This document shows, piece by piece, positions 706 through 27,776 of a DNA stretch of 64,000 nucleotides. A program made the position numbers and the translations under genes. The notes below the pieces were generated by a model. That model saw only the letters and a program-made list of their open reading frames with translations. It was not told the DNA's origin and did no database searches. Positions within the stretch are counted from its first letter, which is position 1; every line of letters begins with the position of its first letter. Source of the stretch: Planctomycetales bacterium (GTDB taxonomy: Bacteria > 4484-113 > JAFGCY01); contig CP060262.1 of the NCBI GenBank assembly GCA_022646745.1, positions 1,495,149 to 1,559,148 of the forward strand. The letters are read 5' to 3'.

Positions 706-1167
706 ATGCGAAGCCTCTACCTGATAGCTGCGATAGTCTCCACGGCATTCGTGCTGGTCAATGGACCGCGCCTGCCCTGGATTGACGCCGCCGACACAGT
801 GGTGATCTTCAAGGGCTTCAACCACGGCATCATCGGCTTCAGCTACATGTGCAGCTGGGCACTCGTGCTCGGCGGGATCTACCAGCTGCTGCTGGGCGTG
901 GTCTACTGGGACATGGATACGAGCGACCATGAACGCTGGCAGTTCACGCTGGAAAGCAGCGGCACCAGCCGCTTCCTCGCAATCGCCGGCGTCGTCTGCC
1001 TGATCCTGGGCGGGATGTGGCTGTACTTCACCTTCAGCAATGACTTCCACCGCTGGCCGGCCGGGGTGATGAGCAGCGTCGCTGCCATATTCACCTGCCT
1101 GCTGTACTGGATGGCCTTCCCGCTGATGGAGCAGGTGGGCATGGACCGCGAGGAGATCGGAGTCTAG
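706..1167 (+). CDS. hypothetical integral membrane protein (about 4 TM segments)
   Basis: Four hydrophobic helices. No recognisable family. Codon bias matches its neighbours. Confidence 0.4.
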   Translation: MRSLYLIAAIVSTAFVLVNGPRLPWIDAADTVVIFKGFNHGIIGFSYMCSWALVLGGIYQLLLGVVYWDMDTSDHERWQFTLESSGTSRFLAIAGVVCLILGGMWLYFTFSNDFHRWPAGVMSSVAAIFTCLLYWMAFPLMEQVGMDREEIGV

Positions 1168-1835
1168 GAAGCGAGGATCTCCTCCGCGCTGCTGGTGCCG
1201 ATGATGTCCGCACCGGCCTCCACCATGCGAACCGCATCCTCCCGGCTGCGCACACCGCCGCTGCATTTCACGAGCCTGTCCTCGCCCAGCTCCCGGCGGA
1301 TCAGCTCCACATGCTCCAGCTTCGTGGCATCGCGGCCGTAGCCCGTGCTGGTCTTGACGCAGTCCACCGGTGCATCGCGCAGCACATGCACCACTTCAGT
1401 GATGCGGGCATCATCGAGGATCGGGGTTTCGATGATCACCTTCAGCATGCGTTGCTGGCGGCGGCAGAGTGTGCCGAGCTTTCCGGCCTCGGCAGCCAGC
1501 TTCGCCATGTTGCCATTCACGAGGGCGAACAGGTCCAGCACCACGTCGAACTCGTCGATGCCCTGCTCCATCAGCTCCTCGATGGCGAAGTACTTGCAGC
1601 TGGCGCTTTCCATACCGAGCGGGTAGGCCACCACCGTTGACACCCTGAGCTGCGGGTTGTGCTTCTTGACGGTGCCGGCCAGCAGCGGGGGGACACACAG
1701 GCTGCGCAGCTGGAGGTGGATTGCCAAATCAACCTGCGCACGCAGGGACTCCACCGTGGCAGCGGGGTCAGCCTTGAGGAAGGCCTGGTCAAGCCGCGTG
1801 TGCAGCTGGGCATCGGCGGGCGGTCGCAGGAACAT
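1164..1835 (-). CDS. deoC: deoxyribose-phosphate aldolase (class I, short form)
   Basis: Schiff-base lysine motif VKTSTGY and the GAD..GTS C-terminal region. N-terminus aligns with DeoC from MFLRPP. The ATG at 1833-1835 is confirmed. The ORF track extends upstream to 2021, but that extension is not DeoC-like. Confidence 0.8.
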   Translation of the reverse strand: MFLRPPADAQLHTRLDQAFLKADPAATVESLRAQVDLAIHLQLRSLCVPPLLAGTVKKHNPQLRVSTVVAYPLGMESASCKYFAIEELMEQGIDEFDVVLDLFALVNGNMAKLAAEAGKLGTLCRRQQRMLKVIIETPILDDARITEVVHVLRDAPVDCVKTSTGYGRDATKLEHVELIRRELGEDRLVKCSGGVRSREDAVRMVEAGADIIGTSSAEEILAS

Positions 1836-15940: not shown

Positions 15941-16795
15941 TCATCCACTGCGCTTCAGCAGCCCCGTGCGCTTGGCATACTTCTCCGCCAGGAGGAAGAT
16001 CAGGTAGCCCAGCGGCAGGAAGATCGCGCCGGTTGCCACCAGCCCCGCCATCTCGTTGCCAAGCTGGCTGAGCGGTGCACCCTCCAGCAGCGCCTTCCTC
16101 TGCGCCGTCAGTGCCCAGTAGGCCGGGCTGGCAATCGCCGCCCCCTGCAGCCATGTGGGCAGCACGCTGATCGGGTAGTACACGCCGCTGATCAGCAGGA
16201 TGATCGCGAGGATGATGTGCGTACCCTGCGCCCCCTTCTCCGGGCTGATCAGCGGCAGCGTGGCCGCGATCAGGCCCAGCCCGACGACTGCGAAACTGCC
16301 GACCACCAGCACCACCAGTGAACTGAGGATGTTGGCATTGCTCAGGTCAATGTGGAAAAACCAGACGAGGAGGCCCATCATCAGGATGATCCTGACAATG
16401 CCGTACAGCACTGCGAATGCACACACGCCGAACAGGTGCGTGAGCCGGTGGATCGGCGCCATGAAGGTGTACTCCAGCGTGCCCTCCCAGCGTTCCCAGG
16501 CGACGGTTTCCGCCACGATGATGAACAGCACTGAGAGATAACTCCACATGATTGCGCCGATCAAGAGGTAGAACACGTAGGGCTGCTTGCCGGCGTAGTC
16601 CGGGGCTGCGCCGCTGGACATGCCGATCAGGCCGATGATCACTGCGTTGATCAGGTTGTAGAACAGCCAGACGATGTCCCAGCCGAGGTAGCGCTTCGTC
16701 AGGTCGATGTCGCGCATGATGAACGCGCGGATCGCCGACAGCTCCCGCATGATGCGGCTGCCGCGGCCCTCGACGCGTTGTTGGTTCACAGACAT
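15941..16795 (-). CDS. ABC-2 type transporter permease
   Basis: Six predicted TM helices of the ABC-2 family type (RAFIMRDIDLTKRYLGWDIVW). Start ATG 16795 has an SD (AAGGAGA, 6-nt spacing). The ORF extends to 16888, but that stretch has no SD. Confidence 0.65.
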   Translation of the reverse strand: MSVNQQRVEGRGSRIMRELSAIRAFIMRDIDLTKRYLGWDIVWLFYNLINAVIIGLIGMSSGAAPDYAGKQPYVFYLLIGAIMWSYLSVLFIIVAETVAWERWEGTLEYTFMAPIHRLTHLFGVCAFAVLYGIVRIILMMGLLVWFFHIDLSNANILSSLVVLVVGSFAVVGLGLIAATLPLISPEKGAQGTHIILAIILLISGVYYPISVLPTWLQGAAIASPAYWALTAQRKALLEGAPLSQLGNEMAGLVATGAIFLPLGYLIFLLAEKYAKRTGLLKRSG

Positions 16796-16925
16796 TGCTT
16801 GTCTCCTTTTGAGGACCTGGGAGCTTGGATCTTGGGTGTAGGGCAGGTGCAATGCCTTGGGTATTGCCCTGGGCACATTGTCGCGCATTGCGCGCCACTG
16901 ATGCCGGTCTGCTACACCTTACAAC

Positions 16926-17468
16926 CTAGCTCCCAGTTCCTTGATTCCATTCCTGGCGCGTGATCGCGTAGTAGGCGACCCCATGCCAGTTGCCACGGCT
17001 GCAGAACTCACAGGGCTTCAGGCCCCTGAGCTGCATGCCGCTCAGTTCCATGCTGCGCCGGGCAGCCCGGTGGCTGTCCAGCGTGTCCCCCCGGACGGTG
17101 CCCAGCGGGTGGTTGCCAAACAGCCAGCCGATCACCAGCCGCTTGGCCTCAACGCCGTATCCCCGCCCGCGCAGCTCCGGGTGGATGCGGGTGCCAAGCG
17201 TTGCCGACATCCTGAACCCGTCGGTGGATTCATAGTACTCGTTGCCGATGTGGCGGCCCGTTGCCAGCTCCTCGATCGCGAAGCAGCCGCGCTCGTCCAT
17301 GAACAGGCCGCTGCCTGCAAAGGCCTGCCTGTCGCGCATGCCCGGCGGGTTGATCGGCCCCCAGAAGGGATTGCCCTCCTTCTGCTCAAGTTGGCGCCAG
17401 GCCCGGTACTCCCCGTAGTCGCGGTAGGGCCTGAGCCGGATCCGCTCTCCGTTGACAATCAACTGCAT
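16926..17468 (-). CDS. GNAT family N-acetyltransferase, RimL/RimJ-like (array member 1)
   Basis: N-terminal IRLRPYRD motif. Core FAIEELATGRHIG. Motif A RGRGYGVEAKRL. C-terminus WNQG. SD AGGAGG. Confidence 0.75.
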   Translation of the reverse strand: MQLIVNGERIRLRPYRDYGEYRAWRQLEQKEGNPFWGPINPPGMRDRQAFAGSGLFMDERGCFAIEELATGRHIGNEYYESTDGFRMSATLGTRIHPELRGRGYGVEAKRLVIGWLFGNHPLGTVRGDTLDSHRAARRSMELSGMQLRGLKPCEFCSRGNWHGVAYYAITRQEWNQGTGS

Positions 17469-17469
17469 T

Positions 17470-18036
17470 TCAGCTGGCCCTCCTGACTGCGTGCCGGTAG
17501 TCCATCGCCGCCCAATCGCTGCGCAGCAGCTGGAAGGACAGCGTGCCTTCCCGCTGGCCATGCCGCCAGTGCACACAGGGCTTCAGCCCGGCCTGCCGCA
17601 TGCCACAGAGCTCCATGCCACGGATGGCGGCTGCATGCGTTGCCACTGTGATCGCGAACAGCGATTCCAGCGGGTAGTTCTCGAACAGGTAGCAGGCCAT
17701 CAGCTGCTTTGCCTCAACACCGTATCCGCGGCCCTGCCAGGCCGGACGGATGAATGTGCCGAGGTATGCGCTGATGCCCGGCAGCACACCCGTGCTGCTT
17801 TCCTCATAGCCAATCAGCGACCCGCTTTCCCGGCAGGCGACGGCGAAGATGTTCATGCCGGACTCGGAGATGTATCCGGCCGGTTCGAACTCCCGGCGCT
17901 GTCCGGCGATTGGCCAGTGGTGCGGTCCCCACTGGTCATTGCCGCACTCCAGTTCCTCGTGCACAAGCGTGAGGTATTCATCGACATCCCTGAACGGCCG
18001 GATAAGTGCCCGCTGGCCTTCATAAACCGTGTACAT
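17470..18036 (-). CDS. GNAT family N-acetyltransferase, RimL/RimJ-like (array member 2)
   Basis: MYTVYEGQRALIRPFRD. QGRGYGVEAKQL. C-terminus WAAMDYRHAVRRAS. SD GGAGGA with 6-nt spacing to ATG 18036 (the track starts at GTG 18042). Confidence 0.8.
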   Translation of the reverse strand: MYTVYEGQRALIRPFRDVDEYLTLVHEELECGNDQWGPHHWPIAGQRREFEPAGYISESGMNIFAVACRESGSLIGYEESSTGVLPGISAYLGTFIRPAWQGRGYGVEAKQLMACYLFENYPLESLFAITVATHAAAIRGMELCGMRQAGLKPCVHWRHGQREGTLSFQLLRSDWAAMDYRHAVRRAS

Positions 18037-18604
18037 GTCCACTCCTCCTTATTCCATGCCGGTAGTCCATCGCTGCCCACTCGCTGCGTGTAAGGTGGTA
18101 ATAGACTACGGCCTCATAGCGGCCCTGCCGGTAATGCACCGCCGGCCGGCAGCCGATGTAATTCATTCCACTCAGTTCCAGCCCACGGCGGGCCGGGGCA
18201 TGCGTTGACAATGTGTCAGCCATGATGCACTGCAAGGGCAAGTTCTCGAACAGCAGGCAGAACATCAGCTGCTTGGCTTCCATCCCGAAGCCGCGCTTCT
18301 GGTGAAGCGGGCGGATGAATGTGCCAACCCAGGCCACGAGGCGTGGCAATGTCAGCGGGCCGACCTCCTCGTAGCCGGCCACTTCGCCGGTGTCCAGCCG
18401 CTCAATACACATCATCAGTGAGCCGTCGGCTGACAGCATGCCATTCTCGTCAAACTGTCTGCGCAATTCATGCCCGCTGTGGTGCATCGGCCCCCAGTGG
18501 GCGTTCGGCTCGGCATGCTCCTCATGCACCAGCTGCAGCATCTCGTCTGCATCCCTGAAGGGCCGCAGCCGGACCAGTTGTCCTTCGTAAACCGTATGCA
18601 TCAT
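18020..18604 (-). CDS. GNAT family N-acetyltransferase, RimL/RimJ-like (array member 3; C-terminal extension overlapping member 2)
   Basis: MMHTVYEGQLVRLRPFRD. KRGFGMEAKQL. C-terminus WAAMDYRHGIRRSGHVHGL extends 6 aa past the family consensus end and overlaps the next gene by about 17-23 nt. Confidence 0.75.
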   Translation of the reverse strand: MMHTVYEGQLVRLRPFRDADEMLQLVHEEHAEPNAHWGPMHHSGHELRRQFDENGMLSADGSLMMCIERLDTGEVAGYEEVGPLTLPRLVAWVGTFIRPLHQKRGFGMEAKQLMFCLLFENLPLQCIMADTLSTHAPARRGLELSGMNYIGCRPAVHYRQGRYEAVVYYHLTRSEWAAMDYRHGIRRSGHVHGL

Positions 18605-19158
18605 CAGCTCCTGTGCACCCTGTGCCTGTAATCCATTGCCAGCCAGGCAGTGCGTGACAGGTTGAAATAGACCCGGTTGGCATACCTGCCGGCGCTGAAA
18701 TAGCTGGTGGCCTCACAACCCAGTGGCTGCATGCCGCAGAGCTGCAGTCCGCGGATGGCGCGGCTGTGCCCCGCCAGTGTCACCGCGAATATGTTCTCCA
18801 GCGGAAAGTTGTCAAACAGCAGGCAGGCCGCCAGCAGCTTTGCCTCAACGCCGTAGCCCCGGCGGCGGTGTCCTTCGAGCACATGCGTGCCCAGCCAGGC
18901 ACCGAGCCGATGCGGATGGATGTTCTCCTCGCCAACGAGCCGTCCCGTGCTGATTTCCTCGATTGCCATGCAGTATTCCTTCTGCTCATTCATTCCGCTG
19001 TAGTCATTGAACAGCGGACGATTCTGCTGCACGCTCTCGAACCAGGGACCCCAGTGCTCGCCGGGCTCATCAATGCCGATGCAGGCCAGGCTGTCCCATT
19101 CCGCGAGATCCCGGAATGGCCTGATCCTGACCTGTGGTCCTGTGTAGGTTGTGTACAT
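18604..19158 (-). CDS. GNAT family N-acetyltransferase, RimL/RimJ-like (array member 4)
   Basis: MYTTYTGPQVRIRPFRD. RRGYGVEAKLL. C-terminus WLAMDYRHRVHRS. SD GAGGAG with 6-nt spacing. Stop overlaps the member 3 start as TGATG. Confidence 0.8.
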   Translation of the reverse strand: MYTTYTGPQVRIRPFRDLAEWDSLACIGIDEPGEHWGPWFESVQQNRPLFNDYSGMNEQKEYCMAIEEISTGRLVGEENIHPHRLGAWLGTHVLEGHRRRGYGVEAKLLAACLLFDNFPLENIFAVTLAGHSRAIRGLQLCGMQPLGCEATSYFSAGRYANRVYFNLSRTAWLAMDYRHRVHRS

Positions 19159-19160
19159 GC

Positions 19161-19715
19161 TCAGCTCCTCTGCACCCTGTGGCGGTAGTCCATCGCCTCC
19201 CATTCACTGCGCAGCAGCTGGAAGTACACCGTGTCAACAAAGTGTCCTCGTACAAAATGGGATAAGCGGGTTCTGCCGACCTGCCGGAAGCCGACGGCCT
19301 CAAGGCCGGCGCGGCTGCGGCTGTGAACCGCCGTGGTATCGGACCATAGGGACTCGACCGGGAAGTTCTCAAACAGGAAGCAGAATGCCAGCAGCTTGGC
19401 CTCGCGCCCGAAGCCCTGGCTCATCTGCGCAGGAACAATGCCCGTCGCCGGGAAGGCGGATAGTTGCCAGCGGCCGATGCCGCAGTATTCCAGCCCGACG
19501 AATTCGCCGTTGTCAGTGCGCTCGATCGCGAAGGCGAAACTGTCCATTGAGATGGACAAGCGCTGCCACTCCGACGCGCTGCGCGCCGCCACATCCCACT
19601 GGATGCCGAGGTGCTCGTTGGGCGAGACCGCGTAGTTGCGTACATAGCCGGAGAACTCCGCCTCGCTGGCGAAGGGCCTGATCCGTACCTTCTCTCCTGT
19701 GTAAGTCGTATACAT
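19161..19715 (-). CDS. GNAT family N-acetyltransferase, RimL/RimJ-like (array member 5)
   Basis: MYTTYTGEKVRIRPFAS. GFGREAKLL. C-terminus WEAMDYRHRVQRS. SD AGGAG with 6-nt spacing to ATG 19715 (the track starts at TTG 19721). Confidence 0.8.
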   Translation of the reverse strand: MYTTYTGEKVRIRPFASEAEFSGYVRNYAVSPNEHLGIQWDVAARSASEWQRLSISMDSFAFAIERTDNGEFVGLEYCGIGRWQLSAFPATGIVPAQMSQGFGREAKLLAFCFLFENFPVESLWSDTTAVHSRSRAGLEAVGFRQVGRTRLSHFVRGHFVDTVYFQLLRSEWEAMDYRHRVQRS

Positions 19716-19717
19716 GT

Positions 19718-20272
19718 TCAACTCCTGGCAACTCCGTGCCGGTAATCCATCCGTTCCCAGTCCTTACGCAGCAGCTGGTACCAGACCTGGCCCTCGTTCT
19801 CCCCCTGCGATGGGAAGGCACAGGCCAGGATCCCGGCGAAGCGGTAGCCGATCGCCTCCAGCCCGGCGATCGCGCGGCTGTGCGTTGCCACCGTGTCAGA
19901 CCACAGTGACTCAATCGGGAAATTCTCGAACAGGTGGCAACTGGCCAGCAGCTTGGCTTCACGGCCGAAGCCGTTGTGCCAGTGCCGCTCCAGCAGTCCG
20001 GTGCCGGTGAAGCCGCTGAGTTGCCAGCGGCCCAGCCCGCAGGTGATCACACCAGCCAGCTCCCCCGAGTCCAGCCTGTCAACCGCAAAGCGGCAGACCG
20101 TATCCTCGGTCGGGAACAGATTCCAGACCTGCAAGGCTGAATTGGCAAAGTACCACTGCGGCCCGCGGTGGGCATTCGGCACCACTGCGTAATCGCGCGT
20201 GAAGCCGGCCCATTCCGCTTCCGAGGCGAATGGCCTGATGCGCACCAGTTGTCCCGTATATGTCGTGAACAT
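19718..20272 (-). CDS. GNAT family N-acetyltransferase, RimL/RimJ-like (array member 6)
   Basis: MFTTYTGQLVRIRPFAS. GFGREAKLL. C-terminus WERMDYRHGVARS. Confidence 0.8.
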   Translation of the reverse strand: MFTTYTGQLVRIRPFASEAEWAGFTRDYAVVPNAHRGPQWYFANSALQVWNLFPTEDTVCRFAVDRLDSGELAGVITCGLGRWQLSGFTGTGLLERHWHNGFGREAKLLASCHLFENFPIESLWSDTVATHSRAIAGLEAIGYRFAGILACAFPSQGENEGQVWYQLLRKDWERMDYRHGVARS

Positions 20273-20274
20273 TG

Positions 20275-20829
20275 TCAGCCTCGCCTGACGCTCTGCCTGA
20301 TCGGGAGCTTCTCCCAGTCCTCCCGCATGATCTGGTACTTCACCCTGGCAACCCGCGTGCCCCTGAAGCGGAATGAACAGGGGATCGTGCCGACATGCCT
20401 GAAGCCCAGCGCTTCCAGCCCGGCCCGCGCCCGGGTGTGTACCGAAAGGGTGTCGGCCCAGACGGACTCAATCGCGAAGTTCTCGAACAGGTGGCACATT
20501 GACAGCAGCTTGGCCTCGCGGCCGAAACCCAGGTGCCAGTGCTCCCGCAGGATCTCCGTGCCGACGCTGGCCGCCAGCTGGTAGGTGCCGAGCACCGCAC
20601 TGACCCAGCCGATGGCCTCACCGCTGTCCCGCCGTTCGATGCAGAAGCGTTCGGCGGCATCATGCGTGATCGAATTGCCAAAGCGCTTGCGGCTCTTGAT
20701 CGCGCGGTGCCAGTCGTCACCCCAGAAGTCACTGAGGGTGATGAACTGGCGGCTGGAGAACTTCCACAGCTCATCCGCATCCCGGAAGGGACGCAGCCTG
20801 ACCTGCTCACCTGTGTAGACAACATGCAT
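20275..20829 (-). CDS. GNAT family N-acetyltransferase, RimL/RimJ-like (array member 7)
   Basis: MHVVYTGEQVRLRPFRD. GFGREAKLL. C-terminus WEKLPIRQSVRRG. SD GGAG with 6-nt spacing. Confidence 0.8.
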   Translation of the reverse strand: MHVVYTGEQVRLRPFRDADELWKFSSRQFITLSDFWGDDWHRAIKSRKRFGNSITHDAAERFCIERRDSGEAIGWVSAVLGTYQLAASVGTEILREHWHLGFGREAKLLSMCHLFENFAIESVWADTLSVHTRARAGLEALGFRHVGTIPCSFRFRGTRVARVKYQIMREDWEKLPIRQSVRRG

Positions 20830-20852
20830 TTCTCACTCCAATAGTGGTTAGT

Positions 20853-20896
20853 AGTCAGTGGTCAGAATTCAGATCACTGACCTCAGACCACTGACT
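20853..20896. repeat. palindromic spacer element (GTCAGTGGTCAGA..TCAGACCACTGACT)
   Basis: Near-perfect 14-bp inverted repeat with a 16-nt loop in the 65-nt gap between array members 7 and 8. Same motif family as the spacers at 22604..22666 and 23224..23288. Confidence 0.6.
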
Positions 20897-21461
20897 ACCG
20901 GCCTCTCACCACTGTCTGCCGGATCGGCATCCTCTCCCAGTCCTCACGCATCACCTGGTACAGCGGCACGGCGACGTTCCTGTCACCATGCCAGTGGATG
21001 CAGCGGTACAGCCCGACCCGACGCATCCCGATAGCCAGCAGTCCGGCCTGGGCGCGGGTGTGCTCCGCCGTGGTATCCGCCCAGACAGTCTGGATCGGGA
21101 AATTCTCGAACAGGTGGCACAGCATCAGGAGCTTGGCCTCACGGCCGAAGCCCCGGCTCCAGTGCCGCCGGTCCACCACGGTGCCGAGCCATGTTGCCAG
21201 CCGGCCCGCCGGCGGCACACCGAAGCTTTCGATGCCGACACACTCTCCGGTGTCAAGCCGCTCGATTGCCAGGCTGTTCTCGCCCTTGTCATCCAGCAGT
21301 TCGCCGTCACTGAACTCGCGGTCAAGCTGGCTGGCAACTGTATGGTACGGCCCCCAGAAATCACTGTATGTGAACTCACGGGAGGCCTGCAGCTGCTGCC
21401 ATTCCTGCAGGTCCCTCACAGGACGCAGCCTGACCAGTTCGCCTGTATAGACATGGTTCAT
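20895..21461 (-). CDS. GNAT family N-acetyltransferase, RimL/RimJ-like (array member 8)
   Basis: MNHVYTGELVRLRPVRD. GFGREAKLL. C-terminus WERMPIRQTVVRGR. SD GGAGAGGA. Confidence 0.8.
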   Translation of the reverse strand: MNHVYTGELVRLRPVRDLQEWQQLQASREFTYSDFWGPYHTVASQLDREFSDGELLDDKGENSLAIERLDTGECVGIESFGVPPAGRLATWLGTVVDRRHWSRGFGREAKLLMLCHLFENFPIQTVWADTTAEHTRAQAGLLAIGMRRVGLYRCIHWHGDRNVAVPLYQVMREDWERMPIRQTVVRGR

Positions 21462-22021
21462 CAGTTTCCTCTCCTGACTGTCTGCCTGATCGGCATTGCT
21501 TCCCAGTCACTGCGCATCAGCTGGTAGTCCAGGATGTCAACATACTTCCCGTGCCAGTGGTAATGCCGCAGGCCGCCGGCCAGCCGGAATCCACAGGCCA
21601 GCAGTCCGCGTGATGCGGGCTCATGCTCGCCGGTGGTGCCGGCCCATACCGACTGCAGCGGGTAGTTCTCGAACAGGTGGCACAGCTTCAGCAGCTTCGC
21701 CTCCCGCCCCAGGCCGTGGCCCCAGCGTGACTCGAGCACGAATGTTGCCAGCCAGCAGGACAGCTCACCGGCCGAGGGCGTGCCATGCAGCGCCACACCT
21801 GCCACCACACCGTCACTGAGGTCCTCGATCGCATGGCAGGCTTCCTCGCCGCCGAGCAGGCCGTCAGCCTCGAATGCCTGCCTGAGCGCTGGTTCGCTAC
21901 TGTGCCAGGGACCCCAGAATGCATTCATGTGCAGGTCACGCTGGCCCTGCAGCTGCATGTACTCATCAAGGTCCCTGAACGGACGCAGCCGCACTCGCTC
22001 GCCTGTGTAGACGACATGCAT
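21461..22021 (-). CDS. GNAT family N-acetyltransferase, RimL/RimJ-like (array member 9)
   Basis: MHVVYTGERVRLRPFRD. GLGREAKLL. C-terminus WEAMPIRQTVRRGN. ATG 22021 has SD GAGG at 6 nt. The track extends to an alternative upstream start at 22066. Confidence 0.8.
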   Translation of the reverse strand: MHVVYTGERVRLRPFRDLDEYMQLQGQRDLHMNAFWGPWHSSEPALRQAFEADGLLGGEEACHAIEDLSDGVVAGVALHGTPSAGELSCWLATFVLESRWGHGLGREAKLLKLCHLFENYPLQSVWAGTTGEHEPASRGLLACGFRLAGGLRHYHWHGKYVDILDYQLMRSDWEAMPIRQTVRRGN

Positions 22022-22587
22022 CAGTGGCCTCGCTTCACAGATTGCCTGATTGGCAATTGTTCCCATTCATCGCGCAGGATCCTGTAGCAGGGCGATGGCA
22101 ACAGCCTGCCGCCTTTGTACAGGTAGCCGTAATGCTTTCCGGCCAGCTTCAGCCCACAGGCCTCCAGCCCGGCCTTGGCCCGGCTGTGTTCATCAGTCGT
22201 ATCTGACCAGACGCATTCGATCGGGTAGTTCTCGAACAGGTAGCAGAGGTTCAGGAGCTTGGCCTCGCGGCCAAAGCCCTTGCCCCAGTGCTCCCGCGCA
22301 ATGATCGTGCCGAGCCAGGTGTTCGTGCGCGCCGGATTCATCGCGCCGTACTCCTCGAAGCCGACGGCCTCGCCCGTGTCCAGCCGCTCAATCGCGAAGC
22401 AGGAATACTCGTCCGTTGACAGCATCCCGCCTGGCTCAAACTCCTTCTTCTTCTGGGCTTCAGCCCAGTGCCAGTCACCCCAGAACTCGTTGAAGTTGCT
22501 TTCCAGGGCACCCTGCACCTTCATCCATTCATCGAGGTCCCGAAAGGGCCTGATGCGGGTACGCTCACCCGTGTAAACGACTTGCAT
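22021..22587 (-). CDS. GNAT family N-acetyltransferase, RimL/RimJ-like (array member 10)
   Basis: MQVVYTGERTRIRPFRD. GFGREAKLL. C-terminus WEQLPIRQSVKRGH. Stop overlaps the member 9 start as TGATG. Confidence 0.8.
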   Translation of the reverse strand: MQVVYTGERTRIRPFRDLDEWMKVQGALESNFNEFWGDWHWAEAQKKKEFEPGGMLSTDEYSCFAIERLDTGEAVGFEEYGAMNPARTNTWLGTIIAREHWGKGFGREAKLLNLCYLFENYPIECVWSDTTDEHSRAKAGLEACGLKLAGKHYGYLYKGGRLLPSPCYRILRDEWEQLPIRQSVKRGH

Positions 22588-22603
22588 TTCAATACCTCAG
22601 TTG

Positions 22604-22666
22604 ACAGTGGTCAGTGGTCGGTGGTCAGAAATAAGAGGATCTGGCTTCTGACCACTGCCTACTGAC
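22604..22666. repeat. palindromic spacer element with GTGGTC(A/G) iterations
   Basis: cagtggtcagtggtcggtggtcagaa then a 15-nt loop then ttctgaccactgcctactgactac. Lies between array members 10 and 11. Confidence 0.6.
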
Positions 22667-23204
22667 TACTCTCCATCCATTCCTGCCGCGTGATGCCGCA
22701 GTACACGATCCCTGTCCACTCACCGCGCGAGTACCAGTTGACCCGTGTCCGTCCCAGCTCTCGCATCCCGCAGCTCAGCATCCCGCCGATCGCGGCTTCA
22801 TGCTTGGACAGGGTGCCGCCGTAGACCATCTCGACCGGGTAGTTGTCAAACAGCAGCTTCATGGCCAGCAACTTGGCCTCTCGGCCATAGCCCCTGCGCC
22901 AGTATGGCTCAAGGATCATCGTGCCGATCTCGGTGGCGGTGCGGCCTCCCGTCGGGATGCGCAGCACCTCGTAGCCGACCAGCTCCTTCCCGGCCAGGCT
23001 CTCGATTGCCAGGAAGGAGAAGTAGTGCGATTCGTCCAGCATGCCGAAGCGGGCCCAGTCCTGTTCCAGTGCGGACAGCCCGACCCAGCCATAGCCCCAC
23101 CAGTCGTCACGCTGCATCCACAGTTCATGGTTGAGCTGTGCATACTCGACCGCGCTGGCAAAGGGCCTGAGCCGGACCAGACTGCCTTCGATTGTCATTT
23201 GCAA
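22659..23204 (-). CDS. GNAT family N-acetyltransferase, RimL/RimJ-like (array member 11, most divergent of the 11)
   Basis: LVRLRPFAS. RRGYGREAKLL. LFDNYP. Probable TTG start at 23204 with SD GGAG at 7 nt. The first ATG at 23198 has poor SD spacing. Confidence 0.7.
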   Translation of the reverse strand: MQMTIEGSLVRLRPFASAVEYAQLNHELWMQRDDWWGYGWVGLSALEQDWARFGMLDESHYFSFLAIESLAGKELVGYEVLRIPTGGRTATEIGTMILEPYWRRGYGREAKLLAMKLLFDNYPVEMVYGGTLSKHEAAIGGMLSCGMRELGRTRVNWYSRGEWTGIVYCGITRQEWMESSQ

Positions 23205-23288: not shown

Positions 23289-23870
23289 CTACTTCCCGGC
23301 GAATTCCCGCCGCTGCTGCTCGGCCAGTTCGCGGTAGGCCGGTGCGATCCAGCCGTAGTGGTGCACCGCCACCGGTTCACCGAGCCACATCTGCATGCGC
23401 TCGAACACAACCTCCAGCTCATAGCCGCAGTCCTTCAGCCAGCCGGCCTTGGCGGCCTCCGGTTCGATGATCTCGCAGCCGATCCTGACGGGGTCGTGCC
23501 AGTCCATCATCAGCGACTCATAGGCCTTCAGGATGTCCATGCCGACTGCGTCGCGGTCAGCGATGTTGTCATCGACATGCACCGTGATCCAGTAGACCCG
23601 GTTCTGCCCGCGCTGCACGAGGAAGCCGACCACACCGCCGGCCTTGCGCACGGCGACGTAGTACTTCTCGCCGCTGCCCCACAGGCCGGGGTCCTTCTCG
23701 TCCTCGAACTTCTTCTTCAGCCGCTGCAGTGTCCAGGGCGTCGGCTTGCGTTCGCAGGGGTTCTGCGCCATCAGCGGTGCCAGCTGCTCGAGGTCCTTCT
23801 CGAGCACGGGGCGCAGCACGATATGCTCGCCCTCCACGAAACCGCGTTCGGTACTTGCGTTGTCAGTCAT
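23289..23870 (-). CDS. GNAT family N-acetyltransferase (distinct subfamily from the array)
   Basis: GEHIVLRPVLEKDLEQL N-terminal motif. GNAT core. SD AGGAGA with 6-nt spacing. Confidence 0.65.
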   Translation of the reverse strand: MTDNASTERGFVEGEHIVLRPVLEKDLEQLAPLMAQNPCERKPTPWTLQRLKKKFEDEKDPGLWGSGEKYYVAVRKAGGVVGFLVQRGQNRVYWITVHVDDNIADRDAVGMDILKAYESLMMDWHDPVRIGCEIIEPEAAKAGWLKDCGYELEVVFERMQMWLGEPVAVHHYGWIAPAYRELAEQQRREFAGK

Positions 23871-23936: not shown

Positions 23937-24884
23937 TCAGGACTTGTCCACGTCCTCTTCGGCACTCAGCCACTCATGTCCCGTCAGTTCCATGAACACT
24001 TCCTCCATGCCCGGAAGCGCATCCCCCTCGGAGGCTTCGCCGCGCTCGATGCGGCGCTTCAGCACCTGCTGCTTCAGTTCCTCGGAGGTGCCGCGGGCCA
24101 CGAAGCGGCCATCCGCCATCAGCGCGATCCGGCCGCACAGCCGCTCCACCTCGTCCATGTCATGGCTGGTGAGCAGTACGGTCGCATCATGCGTGCGCTG
24201 CAGTTCGAGGATGTAGTCCTGCACGTCACGCTTGCTGCGCGGGTCCAGTCCGGTGGTCGGCTCGTCCAGCAGCAGGAGCACCGGGCTCGTCAGCAGCGCG
24301 CGGGCGATTGCCACCTTCTGCTGCATGCCGCGGCTCAGTTCCTGCATGCTGTCCGTCAGCCGCCCTTCCTCAAGGCCGAGCTTCTGCAGGATCTCCTCGG
24401 CGCGCTTCAGCGCTGACCTGTCGTCAACGCCGTACAGCCTGGCCGCATAGAGCAGGTTCTCGTTCGGTGAGAGCTTCTTGAAGAATGCCGCATCCACGCT
24501 CACGCGGTTCAGCAGCCGCTGCACCTGGTAGCTCTGGCGCAGCGGGTCCATCCCGAACACGCGGATGTCGCCTGAGCTCTGCTCCAGCAGTGTGCTGATC
24601 ATGCGGATCAGCGTGCTCTTGCCACTGCCGTTGTGCCCGACCACGCCGAAGATCTCGCCACGCCTGAGCTGCATGCTGATGTTGTCAACAGCCACCTTGC
24701 GCTTCTTCGGCCGGACCAGCAGGCGGCCGAGCCTTGCCAGGCCGCTGACCGGTGTCAGCTCCTTCTTCGGCACATTGACGATGAAGTGCTTGCAGAGGCT
24801 GCGCACATCCAGTGCGTCAGTCGCCGCATCGACCTTCATCAATTCCAGTTCAGGGTGCAGGCCCGGGGCCTTCACTGCGTCCAT
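23937..24884 (-). CDS. ABC transporter ATP-binding protein (ABC-2/DrrA-like)
   Basis: Walker A GHNGSGKST. Signature LSRGMQQK. Walker B LLLLDEP. H-loop TSHD. SD GAGGAGA with 6-nt spacing. Confidence 0.85.
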   Translation of the reverse strand: MDAVKAPGLHPELELMKVDAATDALDVRSLCKHFIVNVPKKELTPVSGLARLGRLLVRPKKRKVAVDNISMQLRRGEIFGVVGHNGSGKSTLIRMISTLLEQSSGDIRVFGMDPLRQSYQVQRLLNRVSVDAAFFKKLSPNENLLYAARLYGVDDRSALKRAEEILQKLGLEEGRLTDSMQELSRGMQQKVAIARALLTSPVLLLLDEPTTGLDPRSKRDVQDYILELQRTHDATVLLTSHDMDEVERLCGRIALMADGRFVARGTSEELKQQVLKRRIERGEASEGDALPGMEEVFMELTGHEWLSAEEDVDKS

Positions 24885-24902: not shown

Positions 24903-25724
24903 TCAGTCCCCGCTGCCCCTGCGGCAGCTGTATATCAGTTCGCCCCTGCGCTCGGCAAGCGGGCTGCGCTCATAGTCACTGTAGACGGCCTCGATCTCGA
25001 GGCCGCTTCCCTCAAGCAGCAGTTCGGCCTCATTGTGCATCATCCAGCGCATGCGGAACTGCTCCTCGTCGTTGTCAACCACGCGCCCCTTGCCGTCTAG
25101 CCGCTCGAAGCGCATGCTGACATCGTGTACCTGGCTGCGTGCATCCGCGAGGATCCTCGTGTAGCGACGCAGCAGCCCGCCGTCCTCCGTCTCCGTCTCG
25201 AGGTCCTGGCGCCAGGTGCTGCACGCCTCCGCCATCCTGGCAATGAAAGCCAGGTTGGGATCGAACAGGTCAAACACCAGCCGGCCGTCCTCGCGCAGGT
25301 GCCGCCGCACGGCCGCGAGGCAGCTGTGCTGCTCATCACGGCTGATCAGGTGCATGAAAGCGCGGAACGGAATGATCACCAGGTCGTAGCGTGCGTCGAG
25401 TTCAAAGTCCGCCATGCTGCCCTGCACCACGTGCAGGCGCTGTTGCACAGGCTGTTCCTCAGCCGAGAGCTTTGCGCGGAGCTGAGCCAGCATGGAGCTG
25501 CTCAGGTCAAGGCCCGTCACATTGTGGCCATTGCAGGCCAGCGGGATGCTCACGCGTCCCGTGCCGCAGCCCAGCTCAAGGATGTCCATCGCGGGCCGCC
25601 CGGGCAGTGACAGCCAGAACTGCAGGTCCACCGCATCGCGGAAACCGTACAGTTCGTCATACCAGCGTGCCATGCCGCGGTAGCATTCCTCGTTGTCAGA
25701 AAGTATTCCTGCAGTGATGTCCAT
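24903..25724 (-). CDS. class I SAM-dependent methyltransferase
   Basis: Motif I ILELGCGTGRVS. Acidic loop VTGLDLS. ATG 25724 with SD AGGAG at 6 nt (the track extends to 25793). Confidence 0.8.
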   Translation of the reverse strand: MDITAGILSDNEECYRGMARWYDELYGFRDAVDLQFWLSLPGRPAMDILELGCGTGRVSIPLACNGHNVTGLDLSSSMLAQLRAKLSAEEQPVQQRLHVVQGSMADFELDARYDLVIIPFRAFMHLISRDEQHSCLAAVRRHLREDGRLVFDLFDPNLAFIARMAEACSTWRQDLETETEDGGLLRRYTRILADARSQVHDVSMRFERLDGKGRVVDNDEEQFRMRWMMHNEAELLLEGSGLEIEAVYSDYERSPLAERRGELIYSCRRGSGD

Positions 25725-25835
25725 TGCGTACTCCTGTGCTGTCGGGAGGGACCGGCCAGGTTCTTTGCTGGATGCATGCGTGCACGTGTGCATGCGGGCC
25801 GGTCGGTACTTGCCAGTCTGGGGAAGGGGGGGCCG

Positions 25836-25860
25836 CTTGAGTCAGTCAGACGGACTCAAG
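25836..25860 (-). promoter_or_regulatory. perfect 8-bp stem-loop that overlaps the stop codon of the upstream sORF (candidate regulatory or attenuator hairpin)
   Basis: mRNA sense CTTGAGTC-cgtctgact-GACTCAAG followed by a C-rich tract with no U-tract. The TGA of the sORF lies inside the 5' arm. Confidence 0.4.
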
Positions 25861-25930
25861 AGCAGAAGCAGAACCCAGTGTGGCCGGTACGGATGCGCTT
25901 GCCGTCGAGCGGCTTCCTGATCATGTTCAT
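25856..25930 (-). CDS. candidate small ORF (24 aa, MNMIRKPLDGKRIRTGHTGFCFCS): leader peptide or small-peptide precursor
   Basis: Strong SD GGAGGT 6 nt upstream of the ATG. 17 of 22 codons end in G or C, matching genome bias. Positioned between the sigma-70-like promoter and the methyltransferase. Confidence 0.3.
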   Translation of the reverse strand: MNMIRKPLDGKRIRTGHTGFCFCS

Positions 25931-25982
25931 CTGCGTACCTCCTTTACTGGGATAGGTGCCGCCATTTGGCGGCCAGTGCCGT

Positions 25983-26010
25983 ATTATACCCGGATTGAAT
26001 GAAATGGCAA
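25983..26010 (-). promoter_or_regulatory. sigma-70-type promoter TTGCCA-N16-TATAAT reading into the sORF/MTase/ABC/GNAT unit
   Basis: Minus-strand -35 TTGCCA (plus 26005..26010) and a perfect -10 TATAAT (plus 25983..25988). The predicted 5' UTR contains the GCCGCCA-aat-GGCGGC hairpin at 25958..25973. Confidence 0.4.
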
Positions 26011-26184
26011 GCCCTGCCGGCGGAATAGCCGGGGCAGCGGCCGTGGGCCGACATTATTAGTTTCTGGAAATTCTGGATTTATGCACCGCTGGGGCGGGCA
26101 GGGTGCGCAATAATCGCTGGCGGCGTCAGTCCGGCTGCGCGGCAATCTGGCAACGCGGGGGCAAAGGCTCCCGTGGATGCGTTG

Positions 26185-26433
26185 TCAGCCCGGCAGTTCC
26201 TCGCTGGCCAGGTTGCTCTTGATCTTGCTGAGCATGCGGTTGCGGCATTCCTCCGTGACGGATTCCTGCGCCTCGCAGTTCTTGATCTTGCTGAGCAGCT
26301 TCTCGATCACCTGCTTCTCGCGGGCGCAGTCGCCGCACTTCTCCAGGTGGTCGCGTGTCGCTTCCAGCTCCGCCTCGCTGCTCTCACCGTAGACGAAGTT
26401 GAAAATCACATCCTGAATCTTCTTACAGTCCAT
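26185..26433 (-). CDS. anti-sigma factor, zf-HC2 type (soluble)
   Basis: H-x3-C-x2-C motif HLEKCGDC. Immediately downstream of the ECF sigma gene. Confidence 0.55.
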   Translation of the reverse strand: MDCKKIQDVIFNFVYGESSEAELEATRDHLEKCGDCAREKQVIEKLLSKIKNCEAQESVTEECRNRMLSKIKSNLASEELPG

Positions 26434-26544
26434 CGCAATCGTCCTTCTTCAGGCCGGAGAAATTGCCAATGTGCATCTCCCGCCTCGCTCCAGCCTGACC
26501 ATCCAGCATTTCCCGCATCCCATGACAAGCCCCGTCCATCGCGC

Positions 26545-27174
26545 TCAGTCCTCCTCGACGCCCAGCCAGCGGCGGAGCTTGTTGACTGCGTAGCGCATCC
26601 GCGAAAGCACCGTACTGAGCGGGCATTCGCAGATCTCGGCGATTTCCTCGAAGGTCAGCTCGTGGTAGATCTTGAGGATCACCACGGTCCGTTGCTTTTC
26701 TGGCAACCTGTCTATCAGTACCTTGAGGGTCTCTGAAAAATTCTCACGCTCAAGCACGTTTTCCGGCAGATCCCGGAAATCCTCGATGAAATCCTGGCGC
26801 TCACTGTCGCTGCCCTCGTCGCCCACCGGGGTGTTCAGCGAGAATGTCTGCTTGGCCGCACTCTTCTTCCAGTGGCGCTTGACCTCATTGAGCGCGATCT
26901 TGTAGACCCAGCTGGAGAACTTCTTCTCCGGGTCGAAGTTCTTCGCGCTCTTGAACACCCGCAGGAACACCTCCTGCACGAGGTCCTCGATGTTCTCCCG
27001 CTCGCTGACCTGCTTGCGGATGAAGTTGTAGATCTGCTTGTGGTACCTGTCGAATATCTGGTCGAATGCCGCACCGTCACCGGAGGCCAGGCGCACGACG
27101 AGTTCCTCGTCGCTGCCGGGCTTCGGCACGATCGGCACATCCAGGCTCCGTTTGTTCTGTGCTGTACTTTCCAT
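26545..27174 (-). CDS. RNA polymerase sigma-70 family, ECF subfamily
   Basis: Region 2 (IEDLVQEVFLRVF..FSSWVYKIALNEVK) and region 4 HTH (LTFEEIAEICECPLSTVLSRMRYA). Confidence 0.85.
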   Translation of the reverse strand: MESTAQNKRSLDVPIVPKPGSDEELVVRLASGDGAAFDQIFDRYHKQIYNFIRKQVSERENIEDLVQEVFLRVFKSAKNFDPEKKFSSWVYKIALNEVKRHWKKSAAKQTFSLNTPVGDEGSDSERQDFIEDFRDLPENVLERENFSETLKVLIDRLPEKQRTVVILKIYHELTFEEIAEICECPLSTVLSRMRYAVNKLRRWLGVEED

Positions 27175-27188
27175 GTTCCCGGTCCAGT

Positions 27189-27605
27189 CTACCCCGCTTC
27201 CCCCGTTTCATCCAGCTCCACCAGTTCGGTGAGCACGCCGCAGGCGCTCTTCGGGTGGATGAAGAACACCCGGCCCTCGGCACCCTGGAACGGAGACTCG
27301 CTCAGCAGCTGCATCCCTGCATCGCTGAGCCTGCCATGCGCCTGGTCCACATCCCCGCTTTCAAAGCAGAGGTGGTGCAGCCCCGGTCCGCGCTTCTCGA
27401 GGAAACGCTGCACCGAGCCCGCCGGATCAGTCGCCTCAAGCAGTTCCAGCTTGGTGTTGCCCGTGAGCATTGCAATGCGCACCCCCTCGGATGGCACCTC
27501 GTGGTATTCCACGGCCTCCGCGGGATAACTGAGCATCGCGCACCACAGCGGCACTGCTTCCTCCAGTGATTTCACGACGATCCCGATGTGGTCCAGCTGA
27601 AACAT
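27189..27605 (-). CDS. VOC family protein, methylmalonyl-CoA epimerase-like
   Basis: HIGIVV and HHLCF metal-ligand motifs of the MCE/glyoxalase fold. 14 nt upstream of the sigma gene. Confidence 0.6.
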   Translation of the reverse strand: MFQLDHIGIVVKSLEEAVPLWCAMLSYPAEAVEYHEVPSEGVRIAMLTGNTKLELLEATDPAGSVQRFLEKRGPGLHHLCFESGDVDQAHGRLSDAGMQLLSESPFQGAEGRVFFIHPKSACGVLTELVELDETGEAG

Positions 27606-27776
27606 AGCCTGAATTATATAAGTGCTTTCCGGCCCTGTTAGCTACCGTTCCACAGGAGGCTTTGTTTCAATTGGGAACAGGGCCAGTCTCAATTGCGACA
27701 TCCTGTATTTATCAACATTTTCTGTGGATAAGTGCTCATTTACCCTTAACTTAAGTCAGCCTTTTTGAGAAAACTG

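Follow-up and report, generated by a model that had tools for sequence, protein, structure and literature searches.

A conserved small reading frame and structured RNA leader as a candidate regulator of a methyltransferase, ABC exporter and GNAT-array operon in Planctomycetales

A 64,000-nucleotide stretch of contig CP060262.1, from a Planctomycetales metagenome-assembled genome (hereafter the window), contains a 24-codon small open reading frame (sORF) between a promoter and an operon that encodes a methyltransferase, an ABC exporter and an array of GNAT-fold proteins. What does so short a reading frame do in front of such an operon? The initial annotation of this DNA had offered two answers, a translation-dependent regulatory leader or the precursor of a small modified peptide. 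Comparison with homologous loci fitted the first, as the ribosome-binding site, the start codon, a frame of 23-24 codons and a hairpin at the stop codon recur, and gave no support to the second. We consider it reasonably probable, from sequence comparison, that the element is a translated cis-regulatory leader, or upstream open reading frame (uORF), which together with a structured 5' untranslated region (UTR) gates the operon. Positions are numbered in the window, and leader and operon lie entirely on its minus strand.

The promoter, the 5' hairpin, the Shine-Dalgarno (SD) sequence, the ATG, the 24-codon frame, the TGA inside a stem and the 131-nucleotide (nt) gap before the methyltransferase gene were all found where they had been placed at the outset (Table 1). 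Six nucleotides separate the GGAGGT from the ATG at 25930, and the frame has no upstream in-frame extension in the window. A bias towards G or C at third codon positions had been claimed and was borne out (21 of 24 codons). The description of the peptide as Cys-rich was overstated, with two Cys among 24 residues and none in most homologues. The methyltransferase gene begins at ATG 25724, 131 nt past the sORF stop, and the start at 25793 given by the program that listed the reading frames is not the real one. The sORF is indeed easily missed, being shorter than the limits of gene callers and absent from protein databases except for one over-extended call. A search of 5.8 billion proteins with a 58-residue extended version of the frame returned this extended call, at the same locus, as its sole match, and a metagenome scan with a degenerate pattern coding for DGKRIRTGHT gave zero matches.

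Homologous loci were fetched through the methyltransferase and a 193-residue protein encoded further downstream, which yielded 17 loci; the leader region was sampled in 12 of them. The distinct leader sequences numbered ten and formed five sequence types, A to E, with six sequences in type A. Loci are cited by our own numbers where they must be told apart. The sORF, a GGAGG and a start codon were present in 12 of 12 sampled leaders, with the GGAGG always 6-8 nt before an ATG, GTG or TTG. In L002, the start codon was retained even though an insertion shifts it. The length of the frame was 23-24 codons in all five types. At this base composition, such a length is expected by chance with a probability of 0.03 per type and 8e-7 for the four further types. 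The fixed length across types is the strongest argument for translation of the frame and for a role of the place at which it stops.

Conservation within type A also points to selection on the frame. The six type-A loci, with methyltransferases of about 60% identity, have the core R[KT]P[LQ]DGKRIRTGHTG in common. Nucleotide identity was 86% in the sORF, 68% in the spacer behind it and 75% in the methyltransferase gene, which makes the sORF the best-conserved segment. Six of the eight variable columns of the core fall at third codon positions (p = 0.011), and insertions and deletions in the C-terminal tail are multiples of three.

Between types, the peptide is wholly different. The type-B peptide reads M[TM]RVMIGSATAVTTAAGLPRFRY and the type-C peptide MFIAVPAKTMAACARRYLRMLFFR; type D has a GTG start followed by SN[ID]RCAYSGQAVRRRNLPSCFFY, and type E a TTG start followed by FDGYEPTKAPVVRQGLLHTSPL. 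Types B to E keep the form of the promoter, the 5' hairpin, the GGAGG and the start, and their peptides are unrelated to that of type A. The initial annotation had proposed to ask whether the peptide or only the RNA structure is conserved. The comparison gave a divided answer, since both the frame and the hairpins are kept, and the peptide is near-invariant within a type only.

The last 4-5 residues before the stop codon vary even within type A, where the tails read FCFCS, FLSI, FCFFH, FFSI, SRFS and FYFS; the Cys residues are thus not conserved. The tails of the other types read PRFRY, LFFR, SCFFY and HTSPL. The content of Cys, Phe, Ser and Leu arises because the RNA of the tail is CU-rich, and in the window the Phe/Cys/Ser C-terminus is encoded by UUC UGC UUC UGC UCU. 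A motif YUGYUUCUUC, read as Phe-Phe-X-stop in the same frame, recurs in type A (L002), type C and type D despite otherwise unrelated peptides, and type B ends in RFRY; the motif may reflect Phe codons, anti-SD-like RNA or part of a Rho-loading (rut) site. In a further locus, L094, no recognisable leader of 23-24 codons was found upstream of the methyltransferase gene. A reading frame of about 105 codons lies there instead (~940..1190), with the SD GGGAGG and a product rich in Gly, Tyr and Pro (MYCKHGGYGFCQEPP..., translated by eye).

The same data bear on a stand-alone small protein, which might be an accessory subunit of the transporter or of the GNAT proteins, or a type I toxin with its SD concealed by a hairpin. 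The strong conservation within types would suit such a product, and the SD of the sORF is indeed hidden, an arrangement typical of type I toxin mRNAs. However, the peptides share no common physico-chemical property, type A being strongly basic and hydrophilic and type B partly hydrophobic, and the one protein-database match was the extended call of the same locus. No antisense partner was seen either, although no search was aimed at one. Furthermore, a length that stays fixed while the sequence changes freely is to be expected of a ruler and not of a folded product. We regard a stand-alone protein as very improbable, and the type I toxin was rejected because the type-A peptide is basic and hydrophilic.

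The RNA structure was examined with an RNAalifold consensus built on the type-A loci. The GCCGCC/GGCGGC hairpin and the stop stem of the initial annotation were confirmed, and the largest structure, a long hairpin termed P1, had been overlooked. In P1, the SD and start region of the sORF pair with its own codons ~13-20, and an apical hairpin (GCCG-CUCGA-CGGC) spans codons 7-10. Helix 1 of P1 is 94% paired, and P1 is almost invariant, with one compensatory pair at the third position of Gly19. The P1 topology, with the SD paired to codons 12-21 and an unpaired tail, appeared in the minimum-energy folds of all five types. In an ORF-shuffle control of types A to D, SD pairing occurred in 7-21% of shuffles per sequence and in 0.8-3% when an unpaired tail was also required.

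The stop codon lies in a second hairpin, P2. All type-A loci have a hairpin at this position with variable sequence, and three of its four aligned pairs show compensatory changes. In most leaders (types A, C and D), a hairpin begins between -8 and +9 nt from the stop codon. The distance from the end of P1 to the stop was 10-17 nt, mostly 13 nt, in the 11 leaders measured. This gap and the hairpin at the stop imply that a terminating ribosome fits between P1 and P2. No U-tract follows P2, which rules it out as a canonical intrinsic terminator. Closer to the methyltransferase gene, the stem P3 encloses a variable insert of ~39 nt; compensatory changes affect four of its eight pairs, and pairing holds in 96% of cells. 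At the 5' end, the position of the small hairpin P0 is occupied in other loci by hairpins of other sequence (GUCCGC..GCGGAC and others; covariation judged by eye), and P0 may serve as a 5'-end stabiliser. Over the whole type-A consensus structure, 92.6% of cells are paired, compared to 24-36% in slid-partner controls. Ten pairs changed on both sides, a number reached in 0 of 500 shuffles.

The promoter shows the same pattern of conservation. CTTGCCA and GGGTATAATAC are unchanged across the six type-A loci, and the leaders, including types B to E, share the form TTGnnA-N16/17-GGTATAAT. The window's promoter matches 11 of 12 consensus positions, and a scan of 3.3 kb found two sites of this quality against 0.5 expected. 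Transcription would start near 25976, as judged from the position of this promoter. On the comparative evidence, in which promoter, SD, start, frame length and hairpins recur, the features of the leader are real.

These structures could also form an RNA-only element, in which P0, P1, P2 and P3 make up a structured 5' UTR (a riboswitch, a protein-binding site, a thermosensor or a stability element) and the sORF is incidental. The conserved peptide core coincides exactly with the 3' arm and apical hairpin of P1, the variable core positions are all structure-neutral as well as synonymous, and the peptide is not kept between types. However, an incidental frame would not account for a length of 23-24 codons in five diverged types (8e-7), for a perfect SD 6-8 nt before the start at every locus, or for the retained start of L002. 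The frame-preserving insertions and deletions and the third-position periodicity (p = 0.011) also oppose it, and no Rfam family matched. The Rfam search of the leader gave only a chance-level match to HIV-1_SL4 (E = 2.1) on the opposite strand. We judge the RNA-only explanation improbable.

The spacer behind the sORF is C-rich and G-poor, which makes it a candidate rut region. In the 11 leaders measured, its ratio of C to G was 1.2-1.9. Ranked among 131-nt windows, the spacer of the present locus reached the 98.5th percentile; the coding strand of the operon has more G than C. At its far end, the ribosome-binding site of the methyltransferase gene (SD2) is covered by a local anti-SD:SD hairpin. 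The local CUCC is the main partner of SD2 in partition-function folds, with a pairing probability of 0.93 in the window. The CUCC is kept in five of six type-A loci and is missing in L002.

A masked SD2 raises the alternative of translational attenuation in the style of Erm, cat or SecM. The tail of the sORF would pair with SD2 in a three-way junction with P2 and P3, a stalled ribosome would free SD2, and Rho would be secondary, as in toiL-topAI. The RNAalifold consensus does pair the tail with AGGAGUA of SD2 (10 pairs, 83-90% paired, two compensatory), and when leader 18-mers are ranked, the duplex of tail and SD2 comes fourth of 212 in the window and first of 215 in L087. Motifs of the +x+ or poly-Arg kind, which are known macrolide arrest contexts, were seen by eye in types A to D (RIR, RFR, RR/RYLR and RRR). 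However, the duplex does not stand out in several type-A loci or in types B, C and D. When ribosome footprints were constrained at every sORF codon in equilibrium folding, SD2 was not consistently unmasked. The dominance of the CUCC, the footprint result and the patchy duplex together mean that Erm-like unmasking is not supported as a general mechanism, and we hold it to be rather unlikely. Classical amino-acid attenuation was rejected, as no runs of a single codon were seen by eye.

The translated regulatory leader, by analogy, probably acts like TnaC, SpeFL or toiL, in which ribosome occupancy near the stop codon controls Rho-dependent termination or downstream translation. A course of events can be proposed on this basis. 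The strong, conserved sigma-70 promoter would start transcription near 25976, and the GGAGG would accept a ribosome only as long as the 3' arm of P1 has yet to be transcribed, or when P1 has opened. Once the ribosome has freed codons ~13-20, P1 would re-form and hide the SD and AUG. Re-formation of P1 implies that few ribosomes would translate the leader, perhaps one per transcript; something comparable is known for trpL. By its geometry, a ribosome with the stop codon in its A site would cover, behind it, the 10-17-nt tail and, ahead of it, the 5' arm of P2. If termination were prompt, P2 would form, the C-rich spacer would be naked, and Rho would load and stop transcription before the methyltransferase gene; in this state SD2 would also be masked by the local CUCC. 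If the ribosome lingered near the end of the leader, the spacer would be shielded or remodelled and the operon expressed. Such lingering could stem from translation stress, from a ribosome-targeting compound, or from a ligand sensed through the type-specific nascent peptide.

Several observations weigh against this reading. The sample is small, with ten distinct leaders of which six are type A. The energy of the single-sequence leader fold is unexceptional (z = -1.2; P1 region, z = +0.2 to -2.9), so the reality of the features is settled by comparison among loci. The ORF-shuffle control of P1, which covered types A to D, used post hoc criteria. Neither the footprint-constrained folds nor the duplex energies demonstrated a mutually exclusive pair of structures, and the failure of footprints to unmask SD2 consistently counts here as well. 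The rut assignment derives from base composition alone, P2 is less clear in type B, and type E keeps the CU-rich tail without an aromatic residue. Across types A to E, no arrest-type residues at a fixed distance from the stop are conserved, and the complete difference of the peptides between types excludes one shared nascent-chain sensor. Finally, coding and P1 pairing constrain the same nucleotides, which could explain part of the peptide's conservation within a type.

Table 1. Elements of the leader and genes of the operon, with their positions in the window
Feature	Position	Strand	Basis or remark
AT-rich block CCAGAAACTAATAATGT	26051..26067	-	unique in window; ~60 nt upstream of the -10 element
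Sigma-70-type promoter, TTGCCA/16-nt spacer/TATAAT	26010..26005, 25988..25983	-	11/12 consensus positions
P0, small 5'-terminal hairpin GCCGCC-AAAU-GGCGGC	25973..25958	-	folding and comparison
P1, long hairpin	25951..25874	-	RNAalifold
SD GGAGG	25942..25938	-	within AAGGAGGT
Leader sORF, 24 codons + TGA, MNMIRKPLDGKRIRTGHTGFCFCS	25930..25856	-	type-A core kept, frame length kept
CU-rich tail UUCUGCUUCUGCUCU (codons 20-24), left unpaired from P1 to the stop	25859..25873	-	contains anti-SD-like CUUCU
P2, hairpin containing the stop codon	25863..25832 (perfect 8-bp core 25860..25853 with 25843..25836)	-	folding and comparison
Stop codon TGA	25858..25856	-	inside 5' arm of perfect stem CTTGAGTC/GACTCAAG
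Spacer, 131 nt (53 C, 32 G), candidate rut region	25855..25725	-	base composition
P3, stem GACCGGCC/GGCCGGUC, ends just before SD2 region	25804..25750	-	RNAalifold
Local anti-SD:SD2 hairpin, CUCC (25748..25745), 9 nt, AGGAG (25735..25731)	25748..25731	-	folding
Class I S-adenosylmethionine (SAM) methyltransferase, first gene after leader	25724..24903	-	Pfam Methyltransf_25
DrrA-like ABC ATPase	24884..23937	-	profile matches
Divergent GNAT-fold protein UNK, 193 residues, no Pfam match	23870..23289	-	AlphaFold2 and Foldseek
Eleven tandem Acetyltransf_3 (RimJ/RimL-like) GNAT paralogues	23204..16926	-	Pfam
DrrB-like ABC-2 permease, last gene of unit	16888..15941	-	profile matches

The first gene of the operon brings in the second reading of the initial annotation. 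The best solved relative of the methyltransferase is CorZ (9SOT, E = 1.3e-37), the N-terminal amine methyltransferase of myxarylin. Other solved relatives include MtfA (PCZA361.24), CcbJ, CypM and aminosugar N,N-dimethyltransferases, which are amine N-methyltransferases. The enzyme is not Erm-like (RrnaAD, E = 8.7e-4 only). Its top NCBIfam match is the methyltransferase of daptides, which belong to the peptides made by the ribosome and modified after translation (RiPPs), at 110.9 bits against a cut-off of 175. The similarity to CorZ indicates, at the sequence level, a related amine N-methyltransferase and not membership of a RiPP family.

A RiPP-like precursor would undergo processing and N-methylation or N-acetylation and leave the cell through the ABC transporter. 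Some known RiPP precursors are very small (PMC12951456), and here myxarylin's CorZ and the daptide methyltransferase are the nearest models and an exporter and GNAT genes adjoin the sORF. The daptide score is nevertheless below its cut-off, even close relatives do not keep the Cys residues, and there is no leader or core likeness between types although the enzymes are 45-50% identical between them. Pfam and NCBIfam searches of the operon, with precomputed Pfam matches in the homologous loci, showed no macrocyclase or other cyclase, dehydratase, radical-SAM, YcaO, P450, RiPP recognition element (RRE) or protease gene; the gene content was methyltransferase, ABC, GNAT, RtcB and RsgA only. In type C (L093), no methyltransferase gene lies between the leader and the ABC gene. 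Sequestration of the SD in P1 would be odd for an abundant precursor, and such a pathway offers no role for five to 13 GNATs. A RiPP precursor thus appears highly unlikely.

The leader does not go with the methyltransferase family as a whole. A scan of genome contigs by methyltransferase alignment, in which the generic SAM motif [VI]LELGCGTG was used, gave 80 distant methyltransferases. None of the 80 had the leader peptide or the operon, and only three had a neighbouring GNAT gene.

The remaining operon genes are dominated by GNAT-fold proteins. The AlphaFold2 model of UNK has a pLDDT (predicted local distance difference test) of 90, and its Foldseek matches are GNAT N-acetyltransferases; the model resembles RimJ-like ribosomal-protein acetyltransferases, phosphinothricin acetyltransferases and SpeG. 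Since UNK has the GNAT fold, the operon carries twelve GNAT-fold genes. The UNK family is rare, with 22 database matches, some named RimJ/RimL by JGI (Joint Genome Institute). In the window and in L094, L095, L100 and L102, the UNK family has invariant PWTxQ and PGLW motifs and, by eye, a degenerate acetyl-CoA motif. The eleven Acetyltransf_3 paralogues are 25-54% identical pairwise and share a conserved GFGREA motif, P-loop-like by eye. By sequence, they come closest among solved proteins to a RimJ-like enzyme and to PacT, a toxin that acetylates aminoacyl-tRNA, with weak scores in both cases (E ~5e-5). PADLOC defence models gave no match for the GNATs or UNK, and only generic mad2/mad3 similarity for the methyltransferase and ABC ATPase.

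The twelve GNAT-fold genes stand in tandem between the ATPase and the permease of one DrrAB-like exporter, and like arrays were seen in L001, L002, L003, L005, L089 and L110. A limited literature search found no published description of such arrays. In type-B loci, UNK paralogues and canonical GNAT genes tend to occur in alternation, an arrangement suggestive of two-gene modules or heterodimers.

All 17 loci carry the same operon, with synteny preserved, of an N-methyltransferase, a DrrA-like ATPase, GNAT-fold genes and an ABC-2 permease, sometimes with RtcB or RsgA. Among loci sampled at both ends, GNAT-fold genes numbered 6-13 where the methyltransferase and both ABC genes were present and two in L093. 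RtcB was found in L089-L092, L093 and L109, and RsgA in L109. RtcB, an RNA ligase, follows the GNAT array (L089/L090, 15476..16732; L092, 6128..7384; L093, 10352..11706; L109, 2972..5189), mostly just before the ABC-2 permease; it looks split or disrupted in L093, and in L109 RsgA, a ribosome-biogenesis GTPase, comes after it. From their annotation, RtcB and RsgA suggest that the operon is linked with the translation apparatus, its repair or its stress. Loci of types other than A have a conserved small ORF of 74-91 residues without a Pfam match, which adjoins the ABC ATPase gene and is absent from the operon of the window. It lies between the methyltransferase and ATPase genes in L089 (6848..7123), L086 (3642..3917) and the P0016 locus, and after the ABC gene in L109 (856..1080).

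Upstream of the leader, on the same strand (26185..27605), are a glyoxalase-family gene, an extracytoplasmic function (ECF) sigma factor and an RsrA-like zinc anti-sigma factor of 82 residues. A set of glyoxalase, ECF and short soluble anti-sigma factor (76-82 residues) genes precedes the leader in nearly all methyltransferase loci (L001-L005, L086, L089, L110), and in type B and E loci TerC lies there as well. The leader's own promoter is sigma-70-like despite the neighbouring ECF pair. The glyoxalase unit appears to be leaderless, as a CTAACA-N17-TATAAT ends 7 nt before the glyoxalase ATG at 27605 (27605..27641, minus strand), and a GGAAC just upstream of this promoter could be an ECF-type -35 element. 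The AT-rich block upstream of the leader promoter is kept in type-A loci as ACT[AT]ATAATGT, with ACTTATAATGT in L001 and L003. From its sequence, it is possibly the -10 element of a second promoter or an operator. The block resembles the -10 region of the glyoxalase promoter (CACTTATATAAT).

What might induce the operon can be guessed at from its content. It encodes amine-capping enzymes and an exporter of the DrrAB kind, and related operons add RtcB or RsgA; the gene set suggests a toxic amine-bearing compound or translation damage as a possible inducer. A more tentative possibility, to which we give limited credence, is that the five leader types form a family of nascent-peptide or translation-stress sensors, each tuned to a different ribosome-directed compound or metabolite, which by way of a single pioneering ribosome and Rho would gate a hitherto undescribed 'amine-capping' defence island of Planctomycetota. 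Besides an amine N-methyltransferase and a DrrAB-like exporter, this island would comprise arrays of as many as 13 GNAT-fold enzymes and, in some lineages, RtcB or RsgA.

The leader marks a rare operon, with twelve GNAT-fold genes between the halves of an ABC exporter, and this GNAT-array operon may be more novel than the leader itself. The substrate of the operon would be reached soonest through the inducer of the leader. To our knowledge, leader-peptide switches have been well studied in Proteobacteria and Firmicutes and hardly at all in Planctomycetota.

Among known systems, the precursors of biarylitides/myxarylin and daptides resemble the locus in their outline, with a very small ORF beside a CorZ- or daptide-related methyltransferase and an exporter nearby. 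They differ in that the present locus has no cross-linking or core enzyme, no conserved core residues and no protease, and the SD of its leader is sequestered. The ermC, ermB and cat leaders likewise have an ORF under an SD of its own, pairing that masks the SD further downstream, +x+ motifs and a resistance-type operon of modifying enzymes and an exporter. However, SD2 here is 131 nt from the leader, is masked by a local CUCC and is not unmasked by footprint folding, and the methyltransferase is not Erm-like.

In the toiL uORF of topAI-yjhQ-yjhP in E. coli, translation is needed for induction, several classes of antibiotic stall ribosomes at different positions, and Rho termination is secondary; RNA structure surrounds the downstream ribosome-binding site, and the uORF pairs with that of topAI (PMC12121999). 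Its operon also contains an acetyltransferase (YjhQ) and a methyltransferase (YjhP), which is a parallel of category and not of homology. Homology was rejected, as YjhQ has no specific similarity to the GNATs of the window and YjhP has a generic SAM-methyltransferase similarity (E = 7.7e-9). A further difference is that pairing between the uORF and the downstream ribosome-binding site is not consistently supported here.

TnaC, the leader of tnaCAB in E. coli, is held with its ribosome at the stop codon, which blocks access of Rho to the adjacent RNA (PMC8429421, PMC8450073). The likeness lies in a leader of 24 residues, the UGA stop of types A and B, and a long spacer of >100 nt that stays untranslated ahead of the first structural gene. 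The W12/D16/P24 signature of TnaC is absent here, the residues nearest the stop are the least conserved, and no evidence points to a ligand like tryptophan.

SpeFL, of speF-potE in gamma-proteobacteria, is also a short leader ORF in a 5' UTR. There, a hairpin over the 3' end of the ORF is unwound by a ribosome at the stop, stalling occurs at any stop codon, and a rut site next to the ORF gives Rho control (10.1101/604074). The present leader is SpeFL-like in its hairpin at the stop, its C-rich and G-poor spacer (by composition only), its Phe-rich C-terminal residues and its basic mid-section, KRIRTGH against HIRRXXH in SpeFL, whose spacing it does not match by eye. The two differ in that there is no sequence homology, SpeFL has 34 codons against 23-24, the downstream genes are unrelated, and here the leader's own SD is sequestered in P1 and the peptide is wholly different among five types. 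Set beside these systems, the leader is probably a further leader-peptide or uORF switch of a known class, notable for its fixed length, its self-hidden SD and the complete turnover of its peptide between lineages. This combination offers a natural test of ribosome geometry against nascent-chain chemistry.

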